Origin: Candidatus Enterousia sp.
GTDB taxonomy: Bacteria > Pseudomonadota > Alphaproteobacteria > Rs-D84
Assembly: GCA_045133095.1 (NCBI GenBank)
Contig: JBGUTP010000004.1
Location: forward strand, 142,873-206,872
Direction of reading: 5' to 3'
DNA length: 64,000 nt
Shown: positions 308 to 21,015 of the stretch, in pieces
Layout of the letters: every line of letters begins with the position of its first letter
Numbering within the stretch: position 1 is the stretch's first letter
Notes under the pieces: generated by a model
Databases searched by the model: none
Told to the model about the DNA's origin: nothing
Seen by the model: the letters and a program-made list of their open reading frames with translations, nothing else
Made by a program: the position numbers and the translations under genes

Positions 308-520
308 ATGAAAATAGGAACTGATATCCTTAACCAACGTCAGGCGGCCCAGTATCTGGGGACGACTGTCGGGACGTTAAACAGTTGGCGCCATTGTGGC
401 AAAAACACTCTGCCATTCATTCGCTGGGGGAACCGTATTCGGTACCGCAAATCCGACCTGGATGCGTGGATTGAACGCCAGCTGATTAACAAGTTAGACG
501 AAGGGGGCGAAAATGTATAA
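308..520 (+). CDS. AlpA/excisionase-family HTH DNA-binding protein (prophage regulatory)
   Basis: 70 aa. The segment QRQAAQYLGTTVGTLNSWRHCG...PFIRWGNRIRYRKSDLDAWI resembles the AlpA/Xis-type HTH_17 pattern. It lies upstream of an integrase. Confidence 0.65.
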   Translation: MKIGTDILNQRQAAQYLGTTVGTLNSWRHCGKNTLPFIRWGNRIRYRKSDLDAWIERQLINKLDEGGENV

Positions 521-1043: not shown

Positions 1044-1278
1044 ATATAGCAAGGGGCCACATCCGTCCCTGTTCCAGATTAACTATGTATTGGCTAATGA
1101 CTATCTGACCCTGCTGGGGCTAAAGGAATATTGCAGTGATGTCGACAGCACGGCCCGCTATATTGCCGGCATGTATCAGATTCAGACCCAAACACAAACC
1201 ATGACACCAGTTGAGATGGAAACAGTACGTCTGACAGCCAAGGAAGTATACGATGCAATCAATTCTGAACGAATCTAA
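1006..1278 (+). CDS. Hypothetical small protein
   Basis: ORF only. It overlaps neighbours at both ends. No recognisable domains. Confidence 0.2.
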   Translation: MKKKEIQMITKIEYSKGPHPSLFQINYVLANDYLTLLGLKEYCSDVDSTARYIAGMYQIQTQTQTMTPVEMETVRLTAKEVYDAINSERI

Positions 1279-4037: not shown

Positions 4038-4101
4038 ATGACCATTATAGATAATATGTCCAAATAATCAATTAAAGAACAAACACTTATATCACTGTTT
4101 T

Positions 4102-4443
4102 TCATTCCCCATCCGGGATTTCGGGGCTGGATACTTCGGTGATGTCATCAAATGGGATTTTGGTTTTGACTATGGTGATGTATCGGTATTCGGGGTCTAT
4201 GCGGGTGACCAGGCCCATTATGGTGTCATAGGCATCGGTCCGATAAAATCGCACCGTTATCATCATGCCCTTTTTAACCAGCGCAAGTTTCCGGGACAGT
4301 CGTTCGGCGGCATCGCCAATCAATTCCCGTCTGGGCTCAACCACCCGATTTTTAGCCAGCACCATCGCATAGTACCCACGCAGGGCCGCAAAAGGCATAA
4401 ACTGTTTTGCACGTGCGGTATTATCAGCCATTGTGTCCCCCAA
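4102..4443 (-). CDS. YolD-like protein (accessory partner of Y-family polymerase)
   Basis: 113 aa. It overlaps the 3' end of the upstream polymerase gene. Sequence and size are consistent with the YolD family associated with UvrX/UmuC on mobile elements. Confidence 0.6.
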   Translation of the reverse strand: MGDTMADNTARAKQFMPFAALRGYYAMVLAKNRVVEPRRELIGDAAERLSRKLALVKKGMMITVRFYRTDAYDTIMGLVTRIDPEYRYITIVKTKIPFDDITEVSSPEIPDGE

Positions 4444-5686: not shown

Positions 5687-5845
5687 TCCAGGACTCAGTA
5701 TAAACCGAATTCACAGGATGTCAAAAAGGATTGTATGGATAAAGGAACCCGCCCATGTGGGGCTAGTATTTACTTTAAGGATAAATGGATGCAATAGCCT
5801 GTACGGTTGAATATTTTTCCAATATTATACAGTGTTTATAGCGCG

Positions 5846-8800
5846 TTAATGTTTGTTAACCGTTTCTGAAATTTTTACTGTACGTGGATCTATTTCATTC
5901 GCAGGTAGCCCATTCAAGAAAGCTGTCTTATCCGCACCGTTGTACAAAATCCATAGCTGCTCTTTAGCACGTGTGATAGCCACATAAAACAGTCTTTTTT
6001 GATCCTTTAGCACCTCATTCGGCGTTTCACCAAAAACTTCGAATAAGGTGGCATCGGGATGTAATGCGGACATGATCGAAGCATCTGCTTCTAATATAAC
6101 TACAACATCCGCTTCTTGTCCCTTAACAGAATGTATTGTACCAATTGAAACCTTTTTCTCAAATTCTTCCCTGCTCATTATCCCCAGTTCAACACATACC
6201 TCTTTTACCTTAGCCAAGAAACGCTCTATGTCAACAAACCAAAATGACATATCGTTATTTCTATGAAGTAGTTTTATGCTATTTTTATCTTTGTTTTGCT
6301 TTATTATCCATACAACAGACTTCAAATATCTAACTGCATTAATTTCTGGTGCCCGTTTATCAGAAACACTCATTTTAGTCTTAAAGATACGATCTGCATC
6401 TGCTGTTACATCTATGGCCCGGCGTCTCTCTATGAACACATCGGATATATTTAATGTATTAACGTTACCTGGCTCAGACTTGTGTGCATTAAAGCTTTCT
6501 CGAGAATCCATATGTTTTTGCATAAATACTCGTGCATTATCAACAATATTGCTGTTACAACGATAATTTGTATCCAATGTCAGAATATATGCGTATTGAA
6601 AATAATTTCTAAAATTATCAAAGTATTTAACGTCCGACCCTGCAAACCTATTTATAGCCTGATATGTATCCCCTACACACATTACATTACAATACGGATT
6701 TTTTTGTTTAATCGCATCTATGAAGTCAAAAAACAGTTTAGAAAAATCCTGGAATTCATCTATAAAAATATACTGTTTTTTTGTTATGTTGACTTCTTGA
6801 TTATCTTTTATCGATTTTGATGCTTTATCCATAAGCATATTAAAGTCCATATCATACTGATTATGCTCTTTAATTTTTTGCATATATAATTTATAAATTC
6901 TAATTGCAATATCCAAAAACTCTCGTTCTCTGGTGTATTCTGGAACAGATTTAACCTTCTCCTCTAATGCTTCGATATCGTTCAAAAAGCTCTGTTGCGC
7001 ACGATTTATAAACTGTGCTATCAATTTAGCGAAATCAGGCATATGGCTTTTCCAGACTTGTCGTACCAGGATATCACGTGATAATTTCTCGGTTTTTATT
7101 CCCTGTTTATTTAACAGCTCTTTGATTGTATTTTCAAACTCTTCACGTGACTGGGTTGGATTATAATACGTCTCTACTAAACCATTCCAATCCTTAACCT
7201 GTTTTGCATACTTATTATAATCTACTGCCGATGGATCAACCCATTCACGAGCATAGAACCATTTTTTCCAATCCATATTAGTTTTATATTCTGAATATTT
7301 ACCAATATGACCTGCGGCATTTATTTTTTCAATTTCTTCTTCGGTTTCACGCCCCGTAATTCCCCAGTGCTCCCATACTAAATTAGAATCCTTTAACAAA
7401 AAATCGGGTTTTATAGATTCTTTTTGAACCAGATATTCTCTTTCATTTTGTTTGGCTATCCCCCATAAGTTACTGGTATAGCACACCGGTTCATACATAT
7501 ATTCAATTCCATGCTCAAACAAGAAATCGCAAATTACTTTTTCTGCCCTAGATTTTACGCAGGTGTTATCCAAGGTTTTATATTCCTGTGCTCTCACCAT
7601 CTGATAAAAATCATCTTCTGACACAAAGTATTTCTTCTCAATCTTGTGCCCCAACTTTCTACAAACAGAATAAAGCTCTTCTGGGGACACGTTATCAAAT
7701 ACTATATCTTGTATAAACTTACTAAGCTCAGGTCCCTGTTCTTTGCTGTCACACAAGATTTTATTATGCCGAACATTATTATACGCAAAGCTATGAAAAG
7801 TTGTTGCAACTGCTTTGGTTATAATTTGTTGTCCATCGACCCTAATGCTGGCCAACCGATTATTGATTTCCTTCGCCGCATCTTTATTGAATGCGAATGC
7901 AATAATAGAATCAGGATTTATATTACAGATTGCAACCAAATACACAATTTTTGCAACCAAAGTCCCTGTTTTGCCCGAACCAGCCAATGCCTGCACCAGT
8001 AAATTTTTATGTTCATCGGCAATAACCATTGCTTGTTTTCTATCAACAACATATATATCGCCATTGGTGTTTTTTGTTACATGGTGCTCGAACCATTCTA
8101 CAACTTTGTCCGCTATTATGGAGTTTACTTCATTTTTCAATCTAGCCACATCAGGAATATCGATGTTATCCAACTTCTTCAACAATTCAGGTCGCATTAT
8201 TCTTATTTGGGGTAATTCCAATCCTCGATAATGCGCCATATCTTTTTGAATTTCCTCTGTTAACTTCTTGCCTTCTTCATACTGTCTGACACTTACTTCA
8301 TTCTGTCTAAATGCAAGCATTTTTTGGCTTGGACGCGAAATCTTATCAATCCTACTGCAAATTGCCTTAAATTCACTAAAGGATATATCTCCATCGGTAT
8401 GCCAATGCTGATAAAAATTCTCGATATCTTCATCTATTTGCGCCTTTAATTGCGTCTCTAATACAAAGGCAGTGATATCTAACGATAAAAAATCTAAATG
8501 TCGTTGTGCTGGCTCTTTTAACCGCTTGATCATGTCACAAATATCATGAAATATGGATTCATAGTTTAAACTTTGTTGCTTTTTTTCTATATTGGTGACA
8601 AGCATTTCGATACGACTGTCAATTTCTATTACCAACCCTCGGTCTTCTACCATTGCCCAGAGCTCTTCTTTTTGCTTTGAGAAGAAAGCAGCATCATTAA
8701 GTTGTTCTATTAGCTCACAAATTTTTTGATATTCAGACCAGTAGTACTTAGCTTCCAATGTTGTTCGAAAATCTTCTATTAACTTGGCTATTTTCGTCTG

Positions 8801-8992
8801 CAGGCACTTTTCTTTTTCGGCAATGACATCCCTGGCCAAGAATTGTAACATTCTTGGGCTCGGCTTCTCTAAGCCTTTTATCAATGTACATATTCTGCGA
8901 TATTCTGACAAATCATAGTCAGAAAACGTTCCGTTTTGTATATCCCAAACGTACGCAGTTATGTCTAAATCTATTTGTGTCTCTAAATCCAT
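5846..8992 (-). CDS. UvrD/Rep-like superfamily-1 helicase with inserted restriction-endonuclease-like segment and four N-terminal ~33-aa repeats
   Basis: Walker A LAGSGKTGT. Q-motif region ATTFHSFA. DExx box FIDEFQDFS. Motifs V/VI GTIHSVKGQEADVVVI and FYVAITRAKEQLWI. Inserted KPDFLL...VWEHWG segment. N-terminal repeats carry a S/YE(F/Y)xxIC core. Confidence 0.8.
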   Translation of the reverse strand: MDLETQIDLDITAYVWDIQNGTFSDYDLSEYRRICTLIKGLEKPSPRMLQFLARDVIAEKEKCLQTKIAKLIEDFRTTLEAKYYWSEYQKICELIEQLNDAAFFSKQKEELWAMVEDRGLVIEIDSRIEMLVTNIEKKQQSLNYESIFHDICDMIKRLKEPAQRHLDFLSLDITAFVLETQLKAQIDEDIENFYQHWHTDGDISFSEFKAICSRIDKISRPSQKMLAFRQNEVSVRQYEEGKKLTEEIQKDMAHYRGLELPQIRIMRPELLKKLDNIDIPDVARLKNEVNSIIADKVVEWFEHHVTKNTNGDIYVVDRKQAMVIADEHKNLLVQALAGSGKTGTLVAKIVYLVAICNINPDSIIAFAFNKDAAKEINNRLASIRVDGQQIITKAVATTFHSFAYNNVRHNKILCDSKEQGPELSKFIQDIVFDNVSPEELYSVCRKLGHKIEKKYFVSEDDFYQMVRAQEYKTLDNTCVKSRAEKVICDFLFEHGIEYMYEPVCYTSNLWGIAKQNEREYLVQKESIKPDFLLKDSNLVWEHWGITGRETEEEIEKINAAGHIGKYSEYKTNMDWKKWFYAREWVDPSAVDYNKYAKQVKDWNGLVETYYNPTQSREEFENTIKELLNKQGIKTEKLSRDILVRQVWKSHMPDFAKLIAQFINRAQQSFLNDIEALEEKVKSVPEYTREREFLDIAIRIYKLYMQKIKEHNQYDMDFNMLMDKASKSIKDNQEVNITKKQYIFIDEFQDFSKLFFDFIDAIKQKNPYCNVMCVGDTYQAINRFAGSDVKYFDNFRNYFQYAYILTLDTNYRCNSNIVDNARVFMQKHMDSRESFNAHKSEPGNVNTLNISDVFIERRRAIDVTADADRIFKTKMSVSDKRAPEINAVRYLKSVVWIIKQNKDKNSIKLLHRNNDMSFWFVDIERFLAKVKEVCVELGIMSREEFEKKVSIGTIHSVKGQEADVVVILEADASIMSALHPDATLFEVFGETPNEVLKDQKRLFYVAITRAKEQLWILYNGADKTAFLNGLPANEIDPRTVKISETVNKH

Positions 8993-9052: not shown

Positions 9053-9460
9053 TTAGGCCAACACACCCATAAAACAATATGGTTTTTGGGATAAGATTTG
9101 CGACACGATTAAATCTGCTGGTAATTGTGGGTGAGATGGCAGGTTTGGAATTGATACCCAGTGCATATCGTCGTGGACGCGCAGTTGGATTTCACCAGTG
9201 TAGGATTTGATTTCGTATGTGTGCAGTTCGATAACCCGGCCTGAATCCGTTGTATGTTTTGCGATTGTAATCAAGTCGCCAATTTGTGCATCTATCCCCA
9301 ACTCTTCGGCCAGTTCACGTTTCAGGCATGTTGGGCCGTCTTCACCATCTTCAAACTTACCACCGGGATATTCCCACGTCCCCGCCAATGGCTGGCCAGC
9401 CGCCCGTCGCATCAACAAGACTTTGTCGTCATCCCTAAAAATCGCTGCAGTTACTTTCAT
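9053..9460 (-). CDS. mutT: NUDIX hydrolase (MutT-like), copy 1
   Basis: Nudix box GGKFEDGEDGPTCLKRELAEELGI. 135 aa. Confidence 0.8.
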   Translation of the reverse strand: MKVTAAIFRDDDKVLLMRRAAGQPLAGTWEYPGGKFEDGEDGPTCLKRELAEELGIDAQIGDLITIAKHTTDSGRVIELHTYEIKSYTGEIQLRVHDDMHWVSIPNLPSHPQLPADLIVSQILSQKPYCFMGVLA

Positions 9461-9559
9461 GCATCCCCTTTTCCCTTACGTTAGCACAAAGATATTGTAA
9501 TCAAAGAACTTTTTGAATATAATCCCTATTGTAATACAAGTAGAATTTAGGAGAAAAAT

Positions 9560-10006
9560 ATGTCTATCACACAAGATAACGGCAAAAAAGGCGAACAAGA
9601 AGTTGTCGATTTGGTATTGTGCCCAAATTGTAAAAAGAAATTGATGTTGTTGCCGCCGAATTATCCGTTGTGTGATATACAATGTACTGGCTGCCAATTC
9701 AGAGCACAGATTAAAACAGCAAACCATAAACCTTCATCTGTCATTCGTGGTGCAGGATGGGACATTATGGAAAAAGTGTTAAAAGCGGGTATACTGCCAC
9801 CATTACTTATTTTGAATTTCAAATGGAACGAAAAAGGCAAACAGTTTCAAGAAATTAGATTTTATCCATTTGTTCCAAAATCTCATTTGAAGAAATATAC
9901 CTTGTCACCAGAGGCTAGAAGAGCAAATTATAGGATGTTTAATTACGTAAATATGGATAAATTACCCTATGTAACACTGTATCAAAACCAAACAGAAACA
10001 GCATAG
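9560..10006 (+). CDS. Hypothetical protein with CxxC...CxxC zinc ribbon, possibly a PD-(D/E)xK-fold
   Basis: GKKGEQEV...LCPNCKKK...CDIQCTGCQFRAQIKTA. SD-like aggag lies 8 nt upstream of the ATG. Confidence 0.4.
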   Translation: MSITQDNGKKGEQEVVDLVLCPNCKKKLMLLPPNYPLCDIQCTGCQFRAQIKTANHKPSSVIRGAGWDIMEKVLKAGILPPLLILNFKWNEKGKQFQEIRFYPFVPKSHLKKYTLSPEARRANYRMFNYVNMDKLPYVTLYQNQTETA

Positions 10007-10176
10007 TTATACATCATGCGGAGAAATTCCGCAAACAGGTAATAGACACATAAATTTTATAAGCCTTATTAATCAGGCAATAATACAGCTGTAAGGTGCA
10101 GTACTTTTAACATATCATATGTATGACAATAAACATAAGCCCATACAGTATTAGACTAATGTACGAATTATACAAC

Positions 10177-11046
10177 TTAAATATTGGTATCGGATGGTAA
10201 AAACAACCAATTATATTCTGGAAAAGGTATTGGTTGGCCATAACCTAGACTTTTCATAATGCGCATAACTTCTTCTGCATGACAAGGCAAGTAATCGTGA
10301 CAATGCGCAGGAAAACTCTCTATAAATATAATTGGTTTGTATTTTTTTATAATATTCATCATCCCTTTTAGTGCTTCTATTTCAAAACCCTCTACATCTA
10401 TTTTTATAAAATCTAGTTTATTTACGTCCAATTTGAACCGATCTAGTGATACTATTGAAACAGAATATTTGTTTTTTGTATCTGACACTTTTATACTTGT
10501 ACCTCCAATATTATCAGATGCCATAAAATCAATTTCTCCCTTTCCATTATTGCTCCCCACCCCCATGTTAAAAGCCGTCACAATATTATCAATCTTGTTG
10601 ATTTTGATATTATTTGTTAACATTCTGAAGGTTTCTGGAATCGGTTCAAAAGCGATCACCCTTTTTGCTTCACCAACTGTCGCAAAAAATACCGAATGAT
10701 TGCCAATATTTGCCCCCACATCCAGTATGGTGGCATTTTTCGGTAAATATTTTAAAAGACGATAAAGAATATCTTGTTCAAAAAAATTAGATGTATTCAC
10801 TATGGTACGTTGAATTACATCCCATGGGTACAGCGGGCAATACATTTTTATAGAATTCGGCATTGTAAAAACGTCCTTATTTTGTATCAAAGACATTTTT
10901 CTACAAATAGTGTCTGTATCAGAATATACAGGGATATACTTTGGCAATATTCCGTGTTTCCTTTGGAATTTGCGACGGTTGTCTTTTGATATAATAAAAA
11001 AAGAGATTATTTTAAACACGCGTTGCATTATTTTTCCATATAACAT
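10177..11046 (-). CDS. FkbM-family SAM-dependent methyltransferase
   Basis: ILDVGANIGNHSVFFA...RVIAFEPIPETF...IDFIKIDVEGFE is typical of the Methyltransf_21/FkbM domain. Confidence 0.7.
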   Translation of the reverse strand: MLYGKIMQRVFKIISFFIISKDNRRKFQRKHGILPKYIPVYSDTDTICRKMSLIQNKDVFTMPNSIKMYCPLYPWDVIQRTIVNTSNFFEQDILYRLLKYLPKNATILDVGANIGNHSVFFATVGEAKRVIAFEPIPETFRMLTNNIKINKIDNIVTAFNMGVGSNNGKGEIDFMASDNIGGTSIKVSDTKNKYSVSIVSLDRFKLDVNKLDFIKIDVEGFEIEALKGMMNIIKKYKPIIFIESFPAHCHDYLPCHAEEVMRIMKSLGYGQPIPFPEYNWLFLPSDTNI

Positions 11047-11709
11047 TTAGTATATTTCCATTTTTTTATCCCAATCAATATTGTGTTTTACTATTTTTGC
11101 AGGATTACCAGCAATAACAGTATTTGTCTCTCTAAAACCCTTTGATATAACTGCGGCATTCGCAACAACCGTGTTATTTGGAATTTTTGCCCGTTTCGTA
11201 AAAATAGCATTTGCTCCAATCCAACAGTGATCACCAACAGTCAAAATGTCTTTTGGAATATTTATAACTCGTTTAGTGTCATTATCCATTAAGGCATGAA
11301 AATCAGAAGCCCAAACTTGAACATCCCTAGAAATCAAACAATCTTTACCAATACAACATTTTGCCCCAGCTGATATGTAAATGTGTATTTCGCTTATGTA
11401 TGTATTATCGCCAATAGAAAGATAATTACTATTTCCACGTTCCATTAATATATTTGTATCGTTAAACATGCAGTTTTTACCTAAATTTACAACATTATCA
11501 TCGGATAATATGGTAATATTTATGTTAGACTGGTTTAGCGGAAGCGAAATATAAATTCTATTATTATTTCCATGTATTTTAATTTTGCCTAGCTTTCGAA
11601 TTTCTTTTTGCCCCAGCTTAAAAAGCTTGTCATTGATAACAGCCGCGACAATGTTGTTTTTTCCTTTTACATCTAATTTTCTTGAATTAAATTTTAACAT
11701 ATCATGCAA
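11047..11709 (-). CDS. Hexapeptide-repeat (left-handed beta-helix) sugar O-acetyltransferase
   Basis: Repetitive [LIV]G..xxI hexads. The C-terminal HCWIGANAIFTKRAKIPNNTVVANAAVI resembles LacA/WbbJ/Vat-type acetyltransferases. Confidence 0.65.
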   Translation of the reverse strand: MHDMLKFNSRKLDVKGKNNIVAAVINDKLFKLGQKEIRKLGKIKIHGNNNRIYISLPLNQSNINITILSDDNVVNLGKNCMFNDTNILMERGNSNYLSIGDNTYISEIHIYISAGAKCCIGKDCLISRDVQVWASDFHALMDNDTKRVINIPKDILTVGDHCWIGANAIFTKRAKIPNNTVVANAAVISKGFRETNTVIAGNPAKIVKHNIDWDKKMEIY

Positions 11710-11761
11710 TATTGTAATTTATAGTGCTACTTTTTCAAGCTTTTTCTTGAAATTTGATATT

Positions 11762-12556
11762 ATGTGTATAATTATGGGAAAAAGAGGTTTTGCATTGATC
11801 CCAAAAATTTCCGTTTTTATGCCTGCATACAATTCTGAAGAATTTATAGCAGAAGCCATAGAAAGTATTTTAAATCAAACTTTTAAAGATTTTGAATTTA
11901 TCATAATCAATGATGGTTCTACAGATCATACGTGGGACATAATACAAAAATATGCAAGGCAGGACAACAGAATCCGCGCATACTCCAGATGTATAAACAA
12001 GGGGATTGTTTATACTGCTAATGAAGGCTTTGAACTTGCAAGGGGCGAATATATCGCTCGAATGGATAGTGACGACATATCACTACCTGAACGTTTTGAA
12101 AAACAGATAAAATATATGGAAACCCATCCCGACATCGGCTTGCTGGGGGCCTGGACACAGTATTTTCCGGGTTTTGATATCTCAAAAAGACCGGAGAACA
12201 TCAATTTGTTTTACCTATTAAAAGATTGCCCTGTAGACCAGCCTGTTGTAATGATTAGAAAATCAGTCATAGATAAATACCATTTACGTTATGATGAAGA
12301 CTATCTGGCATGCGAAGACCAAGAATTATGGTTCAGATTAATAAAAGTATCCAGGATTGCTAACTTGCAGGAATTATTGTTAATGCACAGATGGCACGGG
12401 AATAATATTTCAATCAAAATGGGCGACATTCAGCAACAGAACATCCAAAAAATTCGAAGACAGATTTTAAATTTCATAACGACAGACAAAAAAGAACAAG
12501 ATGCAATAAAAAAAATTATACCAGAAATGCTTGCACCCTTGCTATTAAAAACTTGA
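11762..12556 (+). CDS. Family 2 glycosyltransferase
   Basis: ISVFMPAYNSEEFIAEAIESILNQTFKDFEFIIINDGSTD...RMDSDDIS is the GT2 DxD architecture. The ORF track extends to 11585, but that part overlaps the convergent acetyltransferase; the internal Met at 11762 or 11774 is the likely start. Confidence 0.75.
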   Translation: MCIIMGKRGFALIPKISVFMPAYNSEEFIAEAIESILNQTFKDFEFIIINDGSTDHTWDIIQKYARQDNRIRAYSRCINKGIVYTANEGFELARGEYIARMDSDDISLPERFEKQIKYMETHPDIGLLGAWTQYFPGFDISKRPENINLFYLLKDCPVDQPVVMIRKSVIDKYHLRYDEDYLACEDQELWFRLIKVSRIANLQELLLMHRWHGNNISIKMGDIQQQNIQKIRRQILNFITTDKKEQDAIKKIIPEMLAPLLLKT

Positions 12557-12604
12557 CAATCTTGTTATCTGTGCTACAACATATGTAAACACAGGGGCTG
12601 TGAC

Positions 12605-14056
12605 ATGAAATTTGAATACGGTGTTGATTTAATACAATTAGCAGACAATATCTACTGTTTGAATAACGCCTATAGACAGACGCAAATTTTCGGAAACAGA
12701 AAACTCAAAGAATATTTTGAAAAAGTATGCAAAAACAATTCTGTGAATGCAGACGTGTACAACATGTTTTTACAAAATAATTTCTTAACAGATAAGCCGG
12801 CAGATGCGTACAAACAAAAACTATTACAAGATTCTTTAATATACAGTGCAAAGCCAGAATTTAACTTATTAAGAATTTTACTGACCGATGTTTGTAATTT
12901 AAATTGCGATTATTGCAAGGTTGTAAAATTGATAGATACCCCATCGGCAAAACCAACAAAACAAGAACGTTTGGAAGAAGCTATAAAGTTCTTTTTTGAA
13001 AATTCTATACCATATGAGCCTAAAATAATTCATATCACTGGCGGTGAACCCACATTGTTTTTTGATAGTATTAAGCAAATAGTACAATATAAAAAGAAAT
13101 ATATGCGCCCAAATGAAAATTGCTGGGTTGTGGTAGGCACAAACGCTATAGCTATAACACCAGATAAAGCAAAATTTTTTGCCGACAATAACATAAAATG
13201 TATTGTGTCAATGGATGGACCAGAACATACGCATAATTTATTACGAAAAAACCACGCAGGCCACGGAACCTGGGCAACAGTTGATAAAAACATTAAACTG
13301 TTACAATCATATGGTGTTGAAATATCTATTTCAGCCGTTATGGGCAAGCACACGATTTATAACGCTGATGAAAATATATCGTTCCTGGTTAATGAATACC
13401 ATCCAACAGGTCTGGGGATCAATTTTATGAAGCCACCAACCACAAATTCAGCTGACTATGAATATTTAATTGATGAAAAACTATATGCAGAAACGATGTA
13501 CAAACTGCATCAAAACTATCGAAACCGTGGCGTGTTCTTTGAGTTAATTTTCAGACACTTGGAACCATTTGTACAACAAACTTTCAGATTTCATGATTGT
13601 GGTGCTGCGGCCAGTAAAAATTTAAACATTGATGCAAAAGGAAATATCGGACCGTGCAAATCTTTCTTATTGCTAAATAAAATGGCTATGAAGGATATAA
13701 ATATCCAAGAATATATTGATATCGTATCTACAAATTGGGAAAAACGTTCACCAATTCATTTTGCTCCCTGTCAAAATTGCCCAAGTATCGGCATATGCGG
13801 AAATGGCTGTGCATATGATGCATTTATAAACAATAGCGATATGTTAGCCATAGATACACGAGGGTGCAAATATGTAAAATATTTTTATAAATTGTTCTTG
13901 CAAGACTTGTATGAAATATCGCGTAAAACACATAGCGGGCAAGATATTTTTATACCAACGCAATCTGATAGATTGCAAATGTTGGGAAATGTAAAAGAAA
14001 TTCAAAATTCCTTAAGTTATTCAATAGGACATCAGACGAAACTGTTTCAAAAATGA
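12605..14056 (+). CDS. Radical SAM enzyme with C-terminal SPASM/twitch Cys cluster
   Basis: CNLNCDYC is the CxxxCxxC motif. ITGGEP glycine-rich SAM motif. C-terminal Cys cluster CGAAAS...GPCKS...APCQNCPSIGICGNGCAYDA. 483 aa with an ~95-aa N-terminal extension. Confidence 0.8.
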   Translation: MKFEYGVDLIQLADNIYCLNNAYRQTQIFGNRKLKEYFEKVCKNNSVNADVYNMFLQNNFLTDKPADAYKQKLLQDSLIYSAKPEFNLLRILLTDVCNLNCDYCKVVKLIDTPSAKPTKQERLEEAIKFFFENSIPYEPKIIHITGGEPTLFFDSIKQIVQYKKKYMRPNENCWVVVGTNAIAITPDKAKFFADNNIKCIVSMDGPEHTHNLLRKNHAGHGTWATVDKNIKLLQSYGVEISISAVMGKHTIYNADENISFLVNEYHPTGLGINFMKPPTTNSADYEYLIDEKLYAETMYKLHQNYRNRGVFFELIFRHLEPFVQQTFRFHDCGAAASKNLNIDAKGNIGPCKSFLLLNKMAMKDINIQEYIDIVSTNWEKRSPIHFAPCQNCPSIGICGNGCAYDAFINNSDMLAIDTRGCKYVKYFYKLFLQDLYEISRKTHSGQDIFIPTQSDRLQMLGNVKEIQNSLSYSIGHQTKLFQK

Positions 14057-14655
14057 TAAAACAAAATCATTTATTTTCTGTTTTAATGACTGGTTACAGT
14101 ATTCTGAAACGACGCAATAATTTTGTACATAATTTTAACCATTGTAAACGCGTATTTTTTAATAATGTGCGGATTTTAGGGTTAAGTTCTTTACCAAGTC
14201 TTCGAATTTTAATATTATCGGCCATGTGGCACGACGTTGGACAAAACGACTTCAAACAACAAGCAAAAAATCATCATATATATTCCGCCAGACTATTCAA
14301 ATACTTTACTAAAGAACAAACATATTCAGACATAGTTGTGAATATAATTTTATGCCATAGAAATCGTGGAGCCAATAAGCAATTTTCTCCAAAGACATTA
14401 TTAGAAAAAGCTTTTTTCGATGCCGACAAATTAGACATATTAAATATACCACGATCAAAAAAACTGATAAAATTATACTCTTATGGGTTTTCGTGCGGAG
14501 AGTTTAATATCAAGGACACGCTTGATTTTTGGGAAAACTTTATTATAAACGGCGAAAAAACTTTATTCTTAGAAAGCTCCAAGAAAATATTTCGTAAGAG
14601 AATAAAAAAATTTATACAATTTGTCATATACACCAAAGGAAAATATAATGTCTGA
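14053..14655 (+). CDS. HD-domain-like phosphohydrolase (tentative)
   Basis: H/D-containing segments SAMWHDVG, ILCHRNRG and FFDADKLDIL. The ATGA start overlaps the upstream stop. Confidence 0.35.
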   Translation: MIKQNHLFSVLMTGYSILKRRNNFVHNFNHCKRVFFNNVRILGLSSLPSLRILILSAMWHDVGQNDFKQQAKNHHIYSARLFKYFTKEQTYSDIVVNIILCHRNRGANKQFSPKTLLEKAFFDADKLDILNIPRSKKLIKLYSYGFSCGEFNIKDTLDFWENFIINGEKTLFLESSKKIFRKRIKKFIQFVIYTKGKYNV

Positions 14656-16015
14656 TACGAACAAAGTGGAAATTACAAACATGGATGTTTTTTTTGATTA
14701 CGTCAAAAAACATTTTTTTGCCGACATTACAAACCAGCCATATTTATTGAAAAGCACCCCGAACAGTGTGTTGAACCCCATTCTAGACACATTAAAATCT
14801 CATTTGTCAGATGACAACGTCAAGCAAATAAAAAATATTTTGTTTTATAAGTGGATTTATACCAACGGAATGAAATCCCTATTATTGAATCCGCATTCAG
14901 ATTATATCATACGAAATAGTATTGGATATGAATTTACACCGAAACAAGAGCTTTATGGACATTTATTACAAATTAAAGACTATTTCGACTATATGATAGA
15001 TTTTTATATTGAAAAAAATATGGCTTATAAATTGAAATTAGCATTATTTACATCGGAAACATTTGAATCAGCATTTAATAAGGCAAATATCGAATTTGAA
15101 AAGAGAGTAAAAAGAAATTCTGCCTTGGGGATAGATAATGAAAAAAACATCCTGCTGCATCTGGATAATGGATATAAGCTTGTAAAATTAAATACAGTAT
15201 ACGATTTAGATTATGAAGGATTGTGCATCGGACACTGTATTGGCGAAGGTGTTTTAGACAAAGAAATTAACGACACAAAATCAACAATAACTATTTGCTC
15301 TTTGCGCAAAGACATGTTGGTAAAGGAACGTATCTCCGGTAAAAACATTGTTCGTTCAATACCTTTTGCTTCAATTGTCATAGATCGTTTTGAAAAACTT
15401 CCAAACGGAAAAATATCAGGCAATGTGATTTCCATTGAGGGGCACATCGCTGGGAAAGTTAGATACTACCTAAAAAACCAATTGGACAAACAAGATGCCT
15501 GGAAGGGAAGATTTCCCCCATATATTCATCCTACTTCCGTATCAAACGAAGAAATCGAGTGTCGGAACACCGAACTACAACGAACGCTAACAAACTTCTT
15601 TATGCAAAACAAATTGATAATATGCGGAGAGAGAAAGTATACAACATGTTTGACCCAGGATTATAAGATCGACATGCCAACAACATATTCTATAAGAATT
15701 CGGACCCAGGATGATTTAATTCGAGCTAGCCAACAAGGTTTTTATCATATTGTTATCCCTTCATACGATATGTTTATACCAACAATTCAGCCGATAAGGG
15801 TGGAGCCTTTTGAGAATAAACATAGTTTAAACATAACAAAGTCAGGAACATACGATTTAACGGAGATGCAGAATTTAAAAACAATAAATGTTTCTGCTAG
15901 CCAAGTAACAATATATTGTTATAATTGTAATAATTTGCAAAATATTAATCGTCTAACAGACACAAAAGTGTTGATAGAACGCAATAAATATAATATCATA
16001 CAAAACACTCACTAA
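14648..16015 (+). CDS. Hypothetical protein (~455 aa), no recognisable domain
   Basis: Long ORF inside a same-strand operon. The Met at 14648 follows ggaaa and overlaps the upstream gene end. It contains LDYEGLCIGHCIGEG. Confidence 0.45.
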   Translation: MSDTNKVEITNMDVFFDYVKKHFFADITNQPYLLKSTPNSVLNPILDTLKSHLSDDNVKQIKNILFYKWIYTNGMKSLLLNPHSDYIIRNSIGYEFTPKQELYGHLLQIKDYFDYMIDFYIEKNMAYKLKLALFTSETFESAFNKANIEFEKRVKRNSALGIDNEKNILLHLDNGYKLVKLNTVYDLDYEGLCIGHCIGEGVLDKEINDTKSTITICSLRKDMLVKERISGKNIVRSIPFASIVIDRFEKLPNGKISGNVISIEGHIAGKVRYYLKNQLDKQDAWKGRFPPYIHPTSVSNEEIECRNTELQRTLTNFFMQNKLIICGERKYTTCLTQDYKIDMPTTYSIRIRTQDDLIRASQQGFYHIVIPSYDMFIPTIQPIRVEPFENKHSLNITKSGTYDLTEMQNLKTINVSASQVTIYCYNCNNLQNINRLTDTKVLIERNKYNIIQNTH

Positions 16016-16026
16016 GGATTGCTTTT

Positions 16027-16896
16027 ATGAAAATATACAAAGATGGCTGGCTAGAAACTGGCGAGGGACATAGTATTTATTATATGTTATTAGGCAACCC
16101 AAATGGCACACCTGTTTTGTCTTTTCATGCTGGCCCTGGGGATTGTTCATGGGCAGGATTTTATGATTTTTTAGACGAAAAAAAATATAACATTATTACA
16201 TTTGACCAACGTGGCTGTGGAAAATCTGAGCCCTTTGGCAAAATAGAAGATAACACAATTGACAAAATTTTAGCGGATGCAAAGGCATTGCTTGACTTTA
16301 TTGGCATTCAGGATAAATGTATTTTATTTGGTGGGTCCTGGGGCAGCACTTTGGCATTGGCTTTTGGGGCAAAATTTCCACATATAACAAAATCCTTGGT
16401 GCTATCAAATGTTTTGTTGGGCCGCCATCATGATTTAAAAAAACTGATGTCTGATTTAAAAAAATTTAAGCCATTATCAGATTATGATGTTGATGAAAAT
16501 AATATATTCTTGAAAATAAAGCAGGCGATATGTAAAAACGATATTGAATTTTTGTCAAAATATAATGATTATGAAATATATAAATATACATTTCATAGAA
16601 GCGATGGGTTAAAAACAAATTTGATAGAAAAAGATTTCTTACAAAAACGTCTTTATTGTAACTTTTTATGTAACAACCTATTTTTGTCAAACAAAGGTAT
16701 TGTGAATGAGTTGCAAAAACTGTCTGACAAGCCCATTTTCTTGGTACATAATAAATACGACCCGATATGTAATATAGAGCAAGCACATCTTTTAAAAAAG
16801 CATCTACCACAAACAGAATTGGTCGTGTTAAACAAACGTGGGCACGGAGGAGATTTCCAAATTGACACACTTAAAAAATTCTTCAAAAAAGCTTAA
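16027..16896 (+). CDS. Alpha/beta hydrolase, proline-iminopeptidase-like (S33 family)
   Basis: Nucleophile elbow FGGSWGSTLALAFG (GxSxG) with HAGPGDC upstream matches the prolyl aminopeptidase pattern. Confidence 0.7.
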   Translation: MKIYKDGWLETGEGHSIYYMLLGNPNGTPVLSFHAGPGDCSWAGFYDFLDEKKYNIITFDQRGCGKSEPFGKIEDNTIDKILADAKALLDFIGIQDKCILFGGSWGSTLALAFGAKFPHITKSLVLSNVLLGRHHDLKKLMSDLKKFKPLSDYDVDENNIFLKIKQAICKNDIEFLSKYNDYEIYKYTFHRSDGLKTNLIEKDFLQKRLYCNFLCNNLFLSNKGIVNELQKLSDKPIFLVHNKYDPICNIEQAHLLKKHLPQTELVVLNKRGHGGDFQIDTLKKFFKKA

Positions 16897-18067
16897 TGTT
16901 TGTTTAGTTTATCCTGGCTATCCGCCATATGAACAAGAATCCGGGGGGATTGCATCATATGTCCAGGAAACAGTACAGTTTTTGACCGCATCGGGGCACA
17001 ATGTTGTTGTTATTTCCCGTGCGCCTAGCATATCGCACATTATCAAAAAAAACACAAAAGGCGCCCATATTATATATCTGCCACATTTCTTGCCACGCAT
17101 CAGCAAATTATTTCCCCTGTTAAAATTTAATAAATACGGGGCATATTTTTATTCATATAAAGCATACAAATATTTAAACAAGATAGAAAAAGAAACTCAT
17201 ATACGATTTGATGTTATTGAAGCTAGCGATTGGGGCGGCGAAGGTTATTTTTTTGTAAAGAAATTTCCAAAGAGAACAATTATAAAATGTGACACCCCAA
17301 GTTTTATATCAGAATCATACAACCCAAACAACCCGGCGTATTTAAGTTCTTTTGTAAAAAGGCTAGAACAAAAAACATTATTAAATGCTAAAAACATCGT
17401 ATCAAACAGTAAAAAATTAATGCAAAAAATAAATAGCGTACTACATAAAAAATTATCTTTTACTTTGATTCAATTATCAATGAAAACAACGCCTGCCTAT
17501 AAAACAAAGTACGAGAGCAAATTTTCAAAAAATAATCCAATGAAAATTATCTTTTCTGGCAGAATAGAGAAACGAAAAGGGATTTTCAACCTAATAAAAG
17601 CGGTAAAACAACTGAGAGATCAGGGGATATTTTTGGAACTTTATTGTTTTGGTGCTTCAACGCCTGTTAAACAAACGGACACCATAACAATATTACAAAA
17701 TAAAGGATATGAGTGGCTTCATTTTTATGGTTCTGTTCCAAGGAAACAAATGATAGAACAATATAAAAATTATGATTTATGTGTTGTTCCGTCCGTATTC
17801 GACAGTTTTTGCCTTACAGCACTGGAAGCAATATACTCAAAACTGCCAACCATTATGTCTAACACGACCGGCATTACAGATTTAATATCCAACAAGAGCC
17901 TTGTTTTTTGTTCGTTTGACGAAATGCTATTGAAGCTTAAAGATGCATACTATAACTATTCAACCTATATCTCAGCAATCAACTCTACCTCAACTGAATT
18001 ATATCATAAAACACAGACAGCTAATAGGGACCGATTAAATTATTATTATAAAGTCTCACCCACTTGA
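16838..18067 (+). CDS. Family 4 (GT-B, group 1) glycosyltransferase
   Basis: The N-terminal LVYPGYPPYEQESGGIASYVQETVQFLTASGHNVVVIS and C-terminal RIEKRKGIFNLIKAV...EAIYSKLPTIMSNTTGITDLI match the GT4 pattern. The 59-nt overlap with the upstream gene leaves the start uncertain. Confidence 0.7.
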   Translation: MGTEEISKLTHLKNSSKKLNVCLVYPGYPPYEQESGGIASYVQETVQFLTASGHNVVVISRAPSISHIIKKNTKGAHIIYLPHFLPRISKLFPLLKFNKYGAYFYSYKAYKYLNKIEKETHIRFDVIEASDWGGEGYFFVKKFPKRTIIKCDTPSFISESYNPNNPAYLSSFVKRLEQKTLLNAKNIVSNSKKLMQKINSVLHKKLSFTLIQLSMKTTPAYKTKYESKFSKNNPMKIIFSGRIEKRKGIFNLIKAVKQLRDQGIFLELYCFGASTPVKQTDTITILQNKGYEWLHFYGSVPRKQMIEQYKNYDLCVVPSVFDSFCLTALEAIYSKLPTIMSNTTGITDLISNKSLVFCSFDEMLLKLKDAYYNYSTYISAINSTSTELYHKTQTANRDRLNYYYKVSPT

Positions 18068-18129
18068 TACTGTATATTAAATACATCAATGCTTTTTTAC
18101 AGTGGACAATGTTATCTTTAGATACAAAT

Positions 18130-18220
18130 GAAACGCCGCCAGTGGCTGGTCAGCCGCCCGTCGCATCAGCAGAACTTTATCACCATCCCTAAAAATCGCA
18201 GCAGTTACTTTCATATTTCC
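18130..18220 (-). pseudogene. Truncated 5' fragment (~90 nt) of the NUDIX/mutT gene
   Basis: The sequence ccagtggctggtcagccgcccgtcgcatcagcagaactttatcaccatccctaaaaatcgcagcagttactttcat matches the first ~30 codons of both full mutT copies, including the ATG. Confidence 0.6.
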
Positions 18221-18265
18221 CTTCATAGCTCTGATACGCCCCCGTTCTTCCCCATAGCAATATGA

Positions 18266-19828
18266 TTACTTTTTTGATGTTTGCCTCTGTTTTTCTATAT
18301 TCTTAAAATATTCATCCCATGGAAAAGGTTCATTTTGATTCCACTTACCCATTCCTTGTGCGCTTGTTGAAGATATTGCAGAATCCTTAACTATATTAAT
18401 GGGAATAATACCATCTGGGCACTCTATTTCCACTATTGTTGAAGATATTGCAGAATCCTTAACTATATTAACGGGAATAATACCATCTGGGCACACTATT
18501 TCCACTATTGTAGATTCAACATTATAATCATTGTTTTTTAGCGCCCGCAAATATAATCTTAGTTGTTCCTCACAGTATTCAAGATATTTTCCGTTTATAT
18601 TCTTTCCAGTTTTAAAATCCGCTAAATACTGACATATATTATTTCTTATAATCACCAAATCACACCTTCCTTTCACTCCATCTAAACTAACAGAAAACTC
18701 TGTCTGCATCCCTGCCTTTCTGCTTAAATGTCTTGCGATTTGCCTTGAAACTTTCTCCTTTAAATCATCATAGGACATGCGGCTACCATCTTTATAATAC
18801 TCAGCGAGTTCAGCATGTACACGCTTTCCTAATTCTGTATTATCATCACTAAAATCTACATCTGAAATTCCAACGATTTTTTTTGCTGCCTCGCTAATAG
18901 TTTCTGCATTTATCGCCTCTATCTGAACCAGTTTACAGGTTTTGATATCCGTACTTTTTTTTGATATTAGCTTATTTTCAATCAATTTAGAACTTGGTTC
19001 ATCGAGTTGTTTTTTTATCGAATCCGATGACGTTTTATCTTTGAAACTACTGGCTTCTTTATCCAGAGTGCTTATTGCCTCCTGATCTTTATGCGTTTTT
19101 TTGGAAGGTATTTGTTCAGAGACACCATAATACCTCAAGCCTTCCAAAGGATGTTTTGTTTTGCATTTTTTCAGATTTTTATTATACGCATTATCTATTT
19201 TTTGTAAATACTTGCCACTTAAGCACCTCTTGTATTCCTTTAACTGCTTCTGGATCGTTGGCTCAAATAACCTATGCTTATTATTAACAATAAAACCTAT
19301 TGCTTGTTCTGATGCCTTTTCGAGATAATATTCTAAAAACTGTTGTTTACTTGGCTCTGGCAGCAAATTGATACTTTGCTTTATCTTGTTATGTTTTTTT
19401 TTGCATAGTACCCCAGTAAGATTATCATCTATAAACCGTTCAATCAATAAACACAACAAACTTTCATAATACTTAACAATGCTCTTTTTATCTTTGTTCT
19501 GTAATTTTTCTATATTACGCTCTATCTGCTTACGTACCTTTTCATTAAGTAAATCGTTCTTTCTGATATATTTTTTTATCTGTCTGCTTAAACAAGAAAA
19601 ATAATAACTTTTTAAGTTTCTTTTATATTTCTTATTTGACTTAGTTAATAATTTTTTGATCATTCTAGCATCAGCTTCTTCCAACAAATTAGCTTTTCTT
19701 ATAATTCTTTGTGGCACAGAACAGTTCAAATACCAGAATATAATAGAATATAATCCCAGAGTAATCACATTTAAGAAAGCGTTATTATTGTTTTTTGTCA
19801 TATTATCTCCTCTTTTGCGGCTCTGCAT
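18266..19828 (-). CDS. Hypothetical protein: N-terminal TM helix, Lys-rich middle, 24-aa tandem repeat, RecB/Cas4-type PD-(D/E)xK nuclease motif
   Basis: N-terminal LNVITLGLYSIIFWYL is hydrophobic. GRCDLVIIRNNICQYLADFKTGK resembles the D...(I/A)D(Y/F)KTG RecB-family motif. IVEI(V/E)CPDGIIP(V/I)NIVKDSAISST occurs twice. Confidence 0.5.
   Translation of the reverse strand: MQSRKRGDNMTKNNNNAFLNVITLGLYSIIFWYLNCSVPQRIIRKANLLEEADARMIKKLLTKSNKKYKRNLKSYYFSCLSRQIKKYIRKNDLLNEKVRKQIERNIEKLQNKDKKSIVKYYESLLCLLIERFIDDNLTGVLCKKKHNKIKQSINLLPEPSKQQFLEYYLEKASEQAIGFIVNNKHRLFEPTIQKQLKEYKRCLSGKYLQKIDNAYNKNLKKCKTKHPLEGLRYYGVSEQIPSKKTHKDQEAISTLDKEASSFKDKTSSDSIKKQLDEPSSKLIENKLISKKSTDIKTCKLVQIEAINAETISEAAKKIVGISDVDFSDDNTELGKRVHAELAEYYKDGSRMSYDDLKEKVSRQIARHLSRKAGMQTEFSVSLDGVKGRCDLVIIRNNICQYLADFKTGKNINGKYLEYCEEQLRLYLRALKNNDYNVESTIVEIVCPDGIIPVNIVKDSAISSTIVEIECPDGIIPINIVKDSAISSTSAQGMGKWNQNEPFPWDEYFKNIEKQRQTSKK
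18366..18509. repeat. 72-bp tandem direct repeat (2 copies, near identical) inside the 18266-19828 CDS
   Basis: gttgaagatattgcagaatccttaactatatta(a/c)(t/c)gggaataataccatctgggcac(t/a)ctatttccactatt recurs with period 72. Confidence 0.8.
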
Positions 19829-19926
19829 GTGGCATATCTGCTTTCTGTAGCGATAGCGCCACAGATTTCATCTTCGCTTTGGCTCAACAAGTTTTGAATG
19901 CTGTGTTTGTAGAAAATGCACTCATT

Positions 19927-20313
19927 TTACTTTCCTTTGGTTACCAGGGTTTCTGATACAATCAAATCTGCTGGCAATTGTGGATGGGATGGCAAGTCTG
20001 GGACTGGCACCCAGTGCATATCGTCGTGGACGCGCAGTTGAATTTCACCGGTATAGGATTTGATTTCGTATGTGTGCAGTTCGATTACCTTGCCTAAATC
20101 CGTTGTATGTTTTGCAATGGTAATCAGGTCGCCGATTTGTACATCTATCCCCAACTCTTCAGCCAGTTCACGTTTCAGGCATGTTGGGCCGTCTTCACCA
20201 TCTTCAAATTTACCACCGGGGTATTCCCATTCACCCGCAAAAGGTTGGGCCGCCGCCCGTCGCATCAACAGAACTTTATCCCCATTTCTAAAAATCGCAG
20301 CAGTTACTTTCAT
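19927..20313 (-). CDS. mutT: NUDIX hydrolase (MutT-like), copy 2
   Basis: Nudix box GGKFEDGEDGPTCLKRELAEELGI. About 90% nucleotide identity to copy 1 over most of the gene, diverging at the 3' end. Confidence 0.8.
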   Translation of the reverse strand: MKVTAAIFRNGDKVLLMRRAAAQPFAGEWEYPGGKFEDGEDGPTCLKRELAEELGIDVQIGDLITIAKHTTDLGKVIELHTYEIKSYTGEIQLRVHDDMHWVPVPDLPSHPQLPADLIVSETLVTKGK

Positions 20314-20457: not shown

Positions 20458-21015
20458 ATGACACAAGTGTCAAGTGCGGTTGATGTGCTGTGGAATTTGT
20501 ATCTGAGGCACCCGGAAAAACTGAGTAAGGTTGACTGGGAATACCTGATACGGAATCGAGCAGATGCATTAGTACGCGAAATACTGATTAAAGATATGCG
20601 CGAACACATAAAGCCAACACAAGATAAACATGAACAGCAATGGCTGATAGCCAACCAGGAAACTTTGCAACACATTGGACAATGTGTTGCGGACGGTGGG
20701 GCGGTCGCATACATGGACCTGATTGCGGCAATTGATGCGGGGGTGGATATAAATATCCTGAAATACCTGATATCAAAGTGCGACAACATAAATGGGTGTG
20801 ACGAAAATGGGCAGACAGCCCTGCATCACTGTGCGCAGAATTATGTTAGTTTGGATTTGATGAACGAATTACTAATCGCAGATGCAAACAGTGCCGCACA
20901 AGACCGACACGGCAAAGAGGCCCGCGATTACCTGGACAAAGATGTCTGGGGAGAAGACTATGTGACGGCATTACTGATGTTGCGTCCATGCTGGACATAT
21001 TTTTATGACGAATAA
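20458..21015 (+). CDS. Ankyrin-repeat-containing protein
   Basis: NGCDENGQTALHHCAQNYVSLDLMNELLIADANSAAQDRHGKEARDYL fits the ANK consensus G-TALH-A...LL..GA. A second degenerate repeat lies upstream. Confidence 0.5.
   Translation: MTQVSSAVDVLWNLYLRHPEKLSKVDWEYLIRNRADALVREILIKDMREHIKPTQDKHEQQWLIANQETLQHIGQCVADGGAVAYMDLIAAIDAGVDINILKYLISKCDNINGCDENGQTALHHCAQNYVSLDLMNELLIADANSAAQDRHGKEARDYLDKDVWGEDYVTALLMLRPCWTYFYDE

Follow-up and report, generated by a model that had tools for sequence, protein, structure and literature searches.

Variable hotspots of the SXT/R391 integrative and conjugative elements (ICEs) and of P2/P4 elements belong to the same class as defence hotspots held between conserved anchor genes, and tRNA-targeting P4-like integrative islands are known to accrete in tandem and to decay. 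Here we compare with such systems a 64,000-nt stretch of Candidatus Enterousia sp. (the window; W-coordinates, such as W4088, are window positions), in which two full copies of a MutT-like NUDIX gene, NUDIX1 and NUDIX2, and the 5′ remnant of a third lie between blocks of mobile and defence-type genes. Conserved genes bound the defence hotspots described in the E. coli pan-genome (PMC10121019) and those of P. aeruginosa, cDHS1 and cDHS2, where the cDHS2 flank also contains a NUDIX-domain gene (PMC10250203). Islands with DusA-specific integrases insert in the 5′ end of dusA and restore the gene (PMC4482086). Streptococcal ICEs integrate in mutT with serine-integrase triplets, disrupting the gene, with 2-8-bp repeats (PMC4701971, PMC7168690).

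The window region is a variant of the conserved-anchor hotspot. In line with the described defence hotspots, the same anchors enclose variable, mostly defence-type cargo that differs in close relatives, with integrases in some occupants only. Unlike them, the anchor is a small gene present as several diverged tandem copies, both on mobile islands and on the chromosome, and it is mosaic, with breakpoints inside the gene that concentrate in the first 26-40 nt. The host also differs in genome size, as genomes of the order Rs-D84 are mostly below 1 Mb (PMC12306168). What is new is thus the multi-copy anchor shared by islands and chromosome and the breakpoints within it. We favour, with a probability of roughly 60%, the reading that NUDIX serves as an anchor between swappable, mostly defence-type blocks, which are exchanged by homologous recombination on the NUDIX sequence and combined with the accretion of integrase-borne islands.

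NUDIX relatives were found on 149 stretches of GTDB contigs, taken with one genome per species, and the best 80 were analysed (labelled L001 etc.). These 80 are all gut metagenome-assembled genomes (MAGs), by name Candidatus Enterousia, Alphaproteobacteria or Rickettsiales. Many genomes carry two or three NUDIX copies, and copies paired on one contig share the same orientation and lie 4-24 kb apart. In an ungapped comparison of copies with their flanks (n = 73), conservation starts exactly at the NUDIX start codon and ends near nt 360, with both flanks at background identity. Single-mutT genomes, with which the initial annotation had proposed to compare the window, occur among distant relatives (60-70% identity), whose one NUDIX stands beside tyrS or metK. 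This suggests that NUDIX is ancestrally a chromosomal housekeeping-type gene that proliferated in the Enterousia clade.

Neighbouring genes were clustered as open reading frames (ORFs) across all loci and labelled with Pfam and PADLOC. On both sides, NUDIX is flanked mostly by defence or mobile functions, among them type I and III restriction-modification, McrBC, Dam and other methyltransferases, SLFN-type helicases, SRA-HNH, CoiA-like, CYTH, Fic and PIN proteins, nucleases, reverse transcriptases and GajB-like helicases. The slot between NUDIX and umuC spans 0.7-4.8 kb and holds different genes at each of 14 other loci. The locus thus has the same anchors around differing, defence-rich cargo, as expected of a defence-island hotspot.

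Upstream contexts were grouped by the 60 nt preceding NUDIX in ~70 copies, the multi-member groups coming from the close Enterousia clade. The largest group was the AlpA-IntB-Fic module (15 copies), followed by a Fic remnant (11), a third context with a GTG start (7), an ankyrin-repeat (Ank) gene (5), two types of DpnI-like gene (type a, 5; type b, 4) and four further contexts (3, 3, 2 and 2). All 10 multi-member groups are joined to at least two different haplotypes of NUDIX nt 26-45, and the same haplotypes recur across groups. These nucleotides (window 9416-9435 and 20269-20288; codons 9-15, R-[NDGK]-[GDR]-[DGN]-[KRN]-V) form a short hypervariable patch directly 3′ of an invariant 26-nt start, with only a few haplotypes that are common to unrelated contexts. 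Identity was lost within nt 0-60 in 49 of the 94 pairs with shared upstream DNA, although neither these pairs nor those counted for haplotypes are independent events. Markers at nt 1, 12, 17 and 18 put the crossovers at differing positions within the invariant 26-mer ATGAAAGTAACTGCTGCGATTTTTAG, and junction positions range from nt 1 to nt 40. The remnants also differ in length, measuring 79 nt in the window and 21 nt in L002. NUDIX itself is internally mosaic; for example, the L042 and L053 copies are identical over nt 1-236 and 84% identical afterwards, with different cargo. The comparison shows the two ends of NUDIX, above all its first 12-40 nt, to be the exchange points of neighbouring blocks between close relatives.

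The largest block between NUDIX sequences in the window, island A, could be followed into locus L084, which was reached by a search with the island A GT4 protein and lies on an independently assembled contig from a different sample. W9461-18135 and L084 are 98.8% identical over 8675 nt without a gap, and L084 carries the same 79-nt stub as the window. Past the stub, the window continues with a PD-(D/E)XK gene and NUDIX2, and L084 with a Fic 3′ remnant, a PIN gene, a 94-aa gene and the integrase IntA. At the other end, L084 has another allele as its full NUDIX, 86% identical and with the first mismatch at nt 12, and next to it a CYTH gene, where the window has a helicase gene. Between the two stubs there are 8 differences in nt 1-39 and none in nt 40-79, bounding the shared block at remnant nt 39/40 and NUDIX1 nt 1-12. 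The block thus has both of its ends within the first 12-40 nt of a NUDIX. The initial annotation had described the layout as mutT, island A, a mutT 5′ fragment, island B and mutT, with the mutT 5′ end as a recombination hotspot. That layout is as described, the order remnant, island A, DpnI-like gene and NUDIX is reproduced in L084, and the hotspot is supported by the L084 breakpoints and by upstream contexts that reassort with NUDIX bodies. A fixed crossover point is not supported, given the unequal remnants and the disagreeing markers.

The independent assembly also bears on whether the window could be a contig chimera, joined at the NUDIX repeats of co-existing strains. In favour of this, some 14 of the 80 loci stop at NUDIX or no more than 300 nt away from it, as a repeat would lead one to expect. 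A break 41 nt upstream of NUDIX2 is present in a Logan contig of the same strain, and the longest exact run common to NUDIX1 and NUDIX2 in their alignment is 47 nt. Such an artefact is nonetheless very improbable, as the copies are only 88% identical, the arrangement of remnant, island A and NUDIX recurs in an assembly from another sample, and multi-copy contigs are present in many independent MAG projects.

Island A is a portable block. Its core (W10158-18129) occurs with the same ends in L009 and L085 at 87% and in L086 at 79% identity. No NUDIX remnant accompanies it in L085 or L086, the corresponding side of L009 not being covered, and in L086 it adjoins a serine recombinase. The window stub ends 6 nt from the boundary of this core. 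Counting L084, the cluster is present at 79-99% identity in four other contexts (L009, L084, L085 and L086). In NUDIX direction it encodes a GT4-conflict protein, an alpha/beta hydrolase, a 464-aa unknown protein, HD, radical SAM, GT2, a hexapeptide transferase and an FkbM methyltransferase. Its radical SAM protein has weak viperin-like PADLOC matches and its GT4 is of the Pfam 'conflict systems' type, and the cluster looks like a possible uncharacterised nucleotide- or sugar-modifying conflict system.

L084 also contains a deletion junction (624-934), at which the first ~153 nt of umuC and its upstream region are fused to NUDIX nt 264-360, followed by C132 and an Ank gene. A further NUDIX copy must therefore once have lain beyond its umuDC unit. 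Other NUDIX 3′ stubs are present in L019 and L080. NUDIX-carrying island units thus exist and decay, leaving stubs.

Two unrelated families of P4-like integrase (Arm-DNA-bind_3 plus Phage_integrase), IntA and IntB, occur close to NUDIX in relatives. L001, L018 and L084 have IntA copies that are 99% identical, L002 has one at 72%, and a 3′ fragment of tRNA-Thr(TGT) precedes the gene. The L002 segment of IntA, Fic, NUDIX, two small genes, umuC and umuD is bracketed by perfect 49-nt repeats, with the full tRNA at the far end, and L019 has a 36-nt repeat and a full tRNA-Thr. These islands of the form IntA-Fic-NUDIX-cargo-umuDC measure 5.8-8.2 kb, with tRNA-Thr(TGT) sequences at 7104-7152 and 12934-13009 in L002 and at 2039-2074 and 10257-10332 in L019. 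The flanking repeats mark NUDIX and umuDC as part of the backbone of a tRNA-Thr island. L002 and L019 thus carry tRNA-targeting P4-like islands, with 36-49-nt tRNA 3′-end repeats and with decayed tandem units and stubs among the relatives, as is usual for this class. The window does not, and its structuring repeat is a protein-coding gene.

L002 also has a perfect 21-nt copy of NUDIX nt 1-21 beside an Ank gene, 5.5 kb upstream of the intact gene. We considered this repeat as attL/attR of the IntA island and withdrew the proposal, as the tRNA-Thr 3′-end repeats flanking IntA are interleaved with it. It is better read as another truncated NUDIX copy.

IntB belongs to a module of an AlpA-like helix-turn-helix (HTH) protein, a 402-aa P4-like integrase and Fic/DOC (L022, L026, L030, L033, L038, L040, L041, L052 and L055). 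This module is ~100% identical at the protein level in nine species-level genomes, implying that it probably spread between species very recently, and it always ends at a GTG...ACA version of the NUDIX start. On the left, the module begins at a defined point that adjoins at least three different contexts, and IntB modules showed no NUDIX-derived repeat on that side. In relatives of IntB (87%), the same ~140-nt leader is followed by SACS/NOV_C, KAP NTPase, reverse-transcriptase or methyltransferase cargo, and there is no NUDIX. This non-coding leader (L040 9858-9991; L167 6420-6549; L168 7813-7909; L175 15584-15703) ends 20-30 nt before the start codon of the cargo, be it NUDIX, a KAP NTPase or a 333-aa protein, and could be a shared promoter or the boundary of a cargo slot. 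The idea that IntB integrates into NUDIX is weakened by these NUDIX-free relatives and by the lack of a NUDIX repeat at the left end.

The clustering of junctions in the first 12-40 nt might instead reflect site-specific docking, the invariant NUDIX start (core ~nt 12-26) acting as an att-like site for P4-like tyrosine integrases. Each incoming unit would bring a gene start of its own, or an entire NUDIX, and its insertion would leave an intact gene and a 5′ stub, with the integrase acting in trans or since lost. The dusA integrases, which integrate at a 5′ end with restoration of the gene, are a precedent (PMC4482086). The invariable end of the AlpA-IntB-Fic module at the NUDIX start, after which the NUDIX bodies diverge, would fit, as would the 21-nt copy beside Ank in L002 set against the Ank-NUDIX 'empty' sites of L008, L012, L020 and the window, and the polymorphic markers at nt 12, 17 and 18, which segregate in both directions, would match a heteroduplex overlap region. 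We nevertheless consider docking unlikely. The evident target of IntA in L002, L018 and L019 is marked by flanking tRNA-Thr 3′-end repeats, and since these and the 21-nt NUDIX repeat interleave, at most one of the two can stem from a simple insertion. NUDIX follows the IntB leader like any other cargo, the module has no NUDIX-derived repeat on its left, and stubs of 21 and 79 nt are of unequal length, the longer ending exactly at the boundary of the portable island A. The remnant is only 88.6% identical to NUDIX1, and their longest perfect run is the first 14 nt from the ATG. Finally, metagenome contigs scanned for NUDIX nt 1-21 followed by a non-T, non-NUDIX base, as in an attL-type junction, gave 0 matches. 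The protein-based metagenome scan contributed only 6 relevant contigs.

A stronger version of docking is less probable again. Here the first ~26 nt would be a dedicated docking site, and NUDIX with its cargo would form gene-anchored cassettes moved in trans by P4-like integrases circulating among Enterousia species. The locus resembles the dusA islands: a housekeeping-type gene has the junction at its 5′ end, and incoming DNA supplies a new start and leaves the gene intact. It differs in that no integrase is demonstrably NUDIX-specific and no cognate integrase gene stands at an end of island A or island B, the window islands have no clear identical direct repeats at their flanks, the crossovers vary, and the adjacent P4-like integrases of relatives have other targets or cargo. 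As in the streptococcal ICEs, a MutT/Nudix gene is a recurrent landing place for mobile elements, but the window NUDIX is intact and multi-copy, with no serine-integrase triplet. Tandem units of a short conserved element and variable gene(s) in one orientation are reminiscent of integron arrays. The window is not an integron cassette array, however: it has no IntI, its integrase scores far below integron-integrase models, and no recurring imperfect inverted repeats such as attC hairpins were found between units. The conserved element is moreover a complete selected gene, and the units run from 1.7 to >8 kb on both strands.

The initial annotation had named the window integrase (1253-2284) as the candidate recombinase. 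This 343-aa protein is XerC/D-like and belongs to a separate AlpA-C110-C111-Int module, also present in L016, L010 and L039, at the far end of the umuDC unit. It lies 7 kb beyond NUDIX1, is unlinked to the NUDIX junctions and is not implicated in NUDIX exchange. Pfam scans found no recombinase genes in island A or island B.

The age of the NUDIX copies was then assessed. As the initial annotation reported, the window has two mutT-like paralogues, both intact NUDIX ORFs; they are 87.7% identical over nt 1-359 (E 1e-127), with 108 of 119 amino acids identical, and unrelated beyond ~nt 360. Their dN is 0.05 and their dS 0.51, and the median dN/dS over 1830 pairs of close copies is 0.10. The nearest relatives of both lie in other species, NUDIX1 being 96% identical to L017 and NUDIX2 92% to L007. 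These values show the two copies to be old functional alleles under purifying selection and exclude a recent duplication in situ. They likewise exclude recent serial insertion with the target regenerated each time, as the initial annotation had envisaged. An old and fixed arrangement, in which mutT was duplicated in tandem within this genome and the copies then diverged and took up unrelated insertions, would account for copies in direct orientation within 11 kb. It is already largely refuted and is hardly credible, given the dS, the closer copies in other species (up to 96% in L017, 92% in L007) and the different arrangement in the 98.8%-identical L084. An identical triple arrangement free of polymorphism, which the initial annotation took as the mark of a fixed duplication, is the opposite of what is seen among the relatives.

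The 5′ remnant was real, as the initial annotation had claimed, but its limits of 18130-18220 (~90 nt) were too wide. The remnant consists of 79 nt of coding sequence and ~6-9 nt of similarity in the ribosome-binding-site region, and its reading frame stays open for 42 codons. Identity is 88.6% with NUDIX1 and 87.3% with NUDIX2 (E 1e-22 to 1e-23). Of 13 sites at which the full copies differ in nt 1-79, it agrees with copy 1 at 6, with copy 2 at 5 and with neither at 2, and it carries 2 private changes. 'Chimeric' is thus apt only as a description. The closest match, at 97.5%, is the NUDIX 5′ end of locus L005, and the remnant is a third NUDIX allele. No further NUDIX copies are present in the window.

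Both full copies belong to the MutT-like NUDIX superfamily. They match Pfam NUDIX (PF00293) at 64.5 and 68.4 bits (cut-off 21.1; NUDIX2 E 8e-19), and the Nudix box (GX5EX7REUXEEXGU) is intact in both, reading GGKFEDGEDGPTCLKRELAEELGI. Their best NCBIfam match, NudG PRK10546, reaches 98.3 and 89.9 bits where the cut-off is 156, and TIGR00586 mutT is matched at 71 and 69.7 bits, below its cut-off of 97.9. With scores short of both MutT/NudG equivalog cut-offs, the name 'mutT' is therefore a resemblance and not an assignment. In NUDIX1, the stop of the common '...QILSQKPY*' allele is changed from TGA to TGT, adding 7 residues (CFMGVLA; window 9053-9075).

Each full NUDIX copy of the window precedes a co-oriented nuclease or helicase gene at 60-100 nt, and across loci the last 8-10 NUDIX codons covary with the downstream gene. 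Tails of the type '...QILSQKPY' precede small lipoproteins, '...KTLQAKGK' an SLFN-type helicase and '...NELMQLSLE' C36. No conserved nucleotide motif is indicated at the 3′ junction, where third-codon positions vary freely and the breakpoints after the stop differ. In 6-8 loci, among them L044, L047, L050, L055, L058 and L061, NUDIX is fused in frame to a ~270-aa C-terminal extension matching DUF5677, giving proteins of ~400 aa. Together with the strong purifying selection and a match to a PADLOC defence candidate (E 1e-35), such pairings could mean that NUDIX is a shared leader, regulator or enzymatic partner of two-gene defence modules, the pairs being kept by selection. This coupling, which is compatible with either recombination mechanism, seems improbable. 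The partners are extremely heterogeneous, including small lipoproteins and opposite-strand genes (C36, tyrS), NUDIX stands beside housekeeping genes in distant relatives, and the truncated stub and the 5′ junctions are left unexplained.

The PADLOC candidate in question is PDC-S07, to which both copies belong (E 1.4e-35 and 9.8e-35, profile positions 7-130 of 135). It is a candidate defence family detected in 99% of Enterobacter genomes (PMC12851794), and therefore behaves like a housekeeping MutT/NudG family. The match was discounted as a sign of a defence role on account of this near-universality, and membership says little on the function of the NUDIX copies. PDC-S07 is not discussed in the main text of a preprint on embedded defence candidates.

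Under the favoured anchor reading, window 1-20.4 kb would form the margin of a mosaic region rich in mobile and defence-type genes, with a functional MutT/NudG-like NUDIX as its recurring backbone gene. Several diverged alleles in direct orientation, each with its own cargo, would have been gathered by accretion of island units. Relatives have two types of unit, one running from a tRNA-Thr fragment through IntA, Fic, NUDIX, cargo, umuC and umuD to tRNA-Thr, the other with NUDIX in the cargo slot of an AlpA-IntB island. NUDIX itself would then serve as the homology. Across the loci compared, the crossovers of upstream swaps concentrate in the invariant first 26 nt (to ~nt 40) and those of downstream cargo swaps in the 3′ third, and as alleles differ by ~13%, crossovers may be forced into the longest invariant runs. 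Events with one-sided homology, together with deletions, would leave truncated stubs. The 79-nt remnant may be such a stub, formed when the island A block joined nt 79 of a resident NUDIX, with the DpnI-like gene and its own NUDIX as the other end of that block.

Several observations weigh against the anchor reading. Homologous recombination spread uniformly across the 360 nt would give fewer crossovers at the very 5′ end than are seen, an excess that could equally mean a dedicated site, and the pairs on which the junction counts depend are, as noted, not independent. No recombination functions such as Bet/Exo were identified. tRNA-Thr, IntA and IntB are all absent from the window and from a 5.5-kb leftward extension, the window also having no tRNA-Thr fragment, and the history of the window arrangement is reconstructed from relatives. 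The junction of NUDIX2, PD-(D/E)XK gene and remnant is known from the window alone, with no independent assembly, and look-ups with the Ank gene and the 176-aa protein returned only short same-strain contigs, with no same-strain 'empty' version. Similarly, look-ups found no 'empty' site for the window's own islands, the Ank-NUDIX 'empty' sites being known for the L002 case. Exact-protein look-ups for NUDIX1, NUDIX2 and the PD-(D/E)XK protein returned no other contig, and phage, plasmid and E. coli collections searched with the region gave no match.

The features of the window are given in Table 1. In NUDIX direction the order is Ank, NUDIX2, the 520-aa PD-(D/E)XK gene, the 79-nt stub, island A, the DpnI-like gene, NUDIX1, the 1048-aa helicase, umuC and umuD, beyond which lie a DUF4379 protein and the 343-aa XerC/D-like integrase with C111, C110 and AlpA. 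G+C is 0.30-0.36 across 6-20 kb, as against ~0.43 elsewhere. Core chromosome, including genes for rpoB, rpoC and an aminoacyl-tRNA synthetase, makes up the window from ~25 kb onward.

Table 1. Coordinates of features in the window and their main attributes.
Feature	Position	Strand	Description
AlpA-like HTH, 176-aa, 90-aa and 343-aa XerC/D-like tyrosine recombinase	308..2284	+	module at the far end of the umuDC unit
umuC-umuD block	4088..5763	-	Pfam IMS; second conserved backbone element, sharp ends
Helicase cargo downstream of NUDIX1	5846..8992	-	1048 aa, UvrD/GajB/helicase IV-like, long N-terminal extension; PADLOC GajB E 1e-40, Pfam, NCBIfam
NUDIX1	9053..9460	-	intact NUDIX ORF, 135 aa; 'QILSQKPY' tail type, stop codon lost
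DpnI-like gene	9560..10006	+	Pfam DpnI E 2e-14; PADLOC mREase_II; methyl-directed restriction enzyme type
Island A core	10158..18129	.	portable 8-gene cluster, Pfam-labelled
NUDIX 5′ remnant	18136..18214	-	nt 1-79 of a third allele, ATG at 18214; abuts island A core end
Island B	18266..19828	-	single 520-aa gene, weak PD-(D/E)XK nuclease match; co-oriented, directly downstream of NUDIX2
NUDIX2	19927..20313	-	intact MutT/NudG-like NUDIX ORF, 128 aa; first gene of the variable region, adjoins the conserved Ank-repeat gene
Ankyrin-repeat gene	20458..21015	+	conserved neighbour, chromosome side of NUDIX2

At the chromosome side, an Ank-NUDIX junction like that of the window is also found in L008, L012 and L020. 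The PD-(D/E)XK gene is unique among the fetched loci, and homology to other NUDIX2-type loci ends exactly at its start codon (W19828). Within this gene, window 18364-18507 is a tandem duplication of 72 nt, in perfect register and 97% identical, which repeats a 24-residue segment (…STIVEI.CPDGIIP.NIVKDSAIS) near the C-terminus. At 9 loci the DpnI-like gene adjoins NUDIX as its divergent upstream neighbour, in several cases with core genes (tyrS and C38, for example) alongside.

In 14 loci the umuC-umuD block keeps 93-95% identity and the same sharp ends, W4088 and W5763, including across species whose NUDIX copies are only ~85% identical. This is how a backbone segment that spread recently would behave. 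Between umuD and the integrase, a 573-aa protein (window 2316-4037) has five DUF4379 treble-clef zinc-finger repeats (E 2e-92) with DUF2726 and NUMOD-like matches, and is conserved in L010, L025, L030 and L039.

Genomes of <1 Mb thus devote tens of kb to a rapidly reshuffled, defence-type region built round a repeated small housekeeping-type gene. If docking were true, the region would offer integron-like exchange of cargo, with the recombination site lying inside, and regenerating, a selected protein-coding gene. If instead the anchor mechanism is true, a conserved multi-copy gene with hypervariable flanks and in-gene breakpoints would be a searchable hotspot signature for uncultured bacteria with reduced genomes, and the NUDIX-umuC slot and the upstream side of NUDIX would form a natural catalogue of candidate defence modules. 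It would also explain why MutT-like NUDIX genes are flagged through guilt by association; they may be island landmarks, not defence genes.

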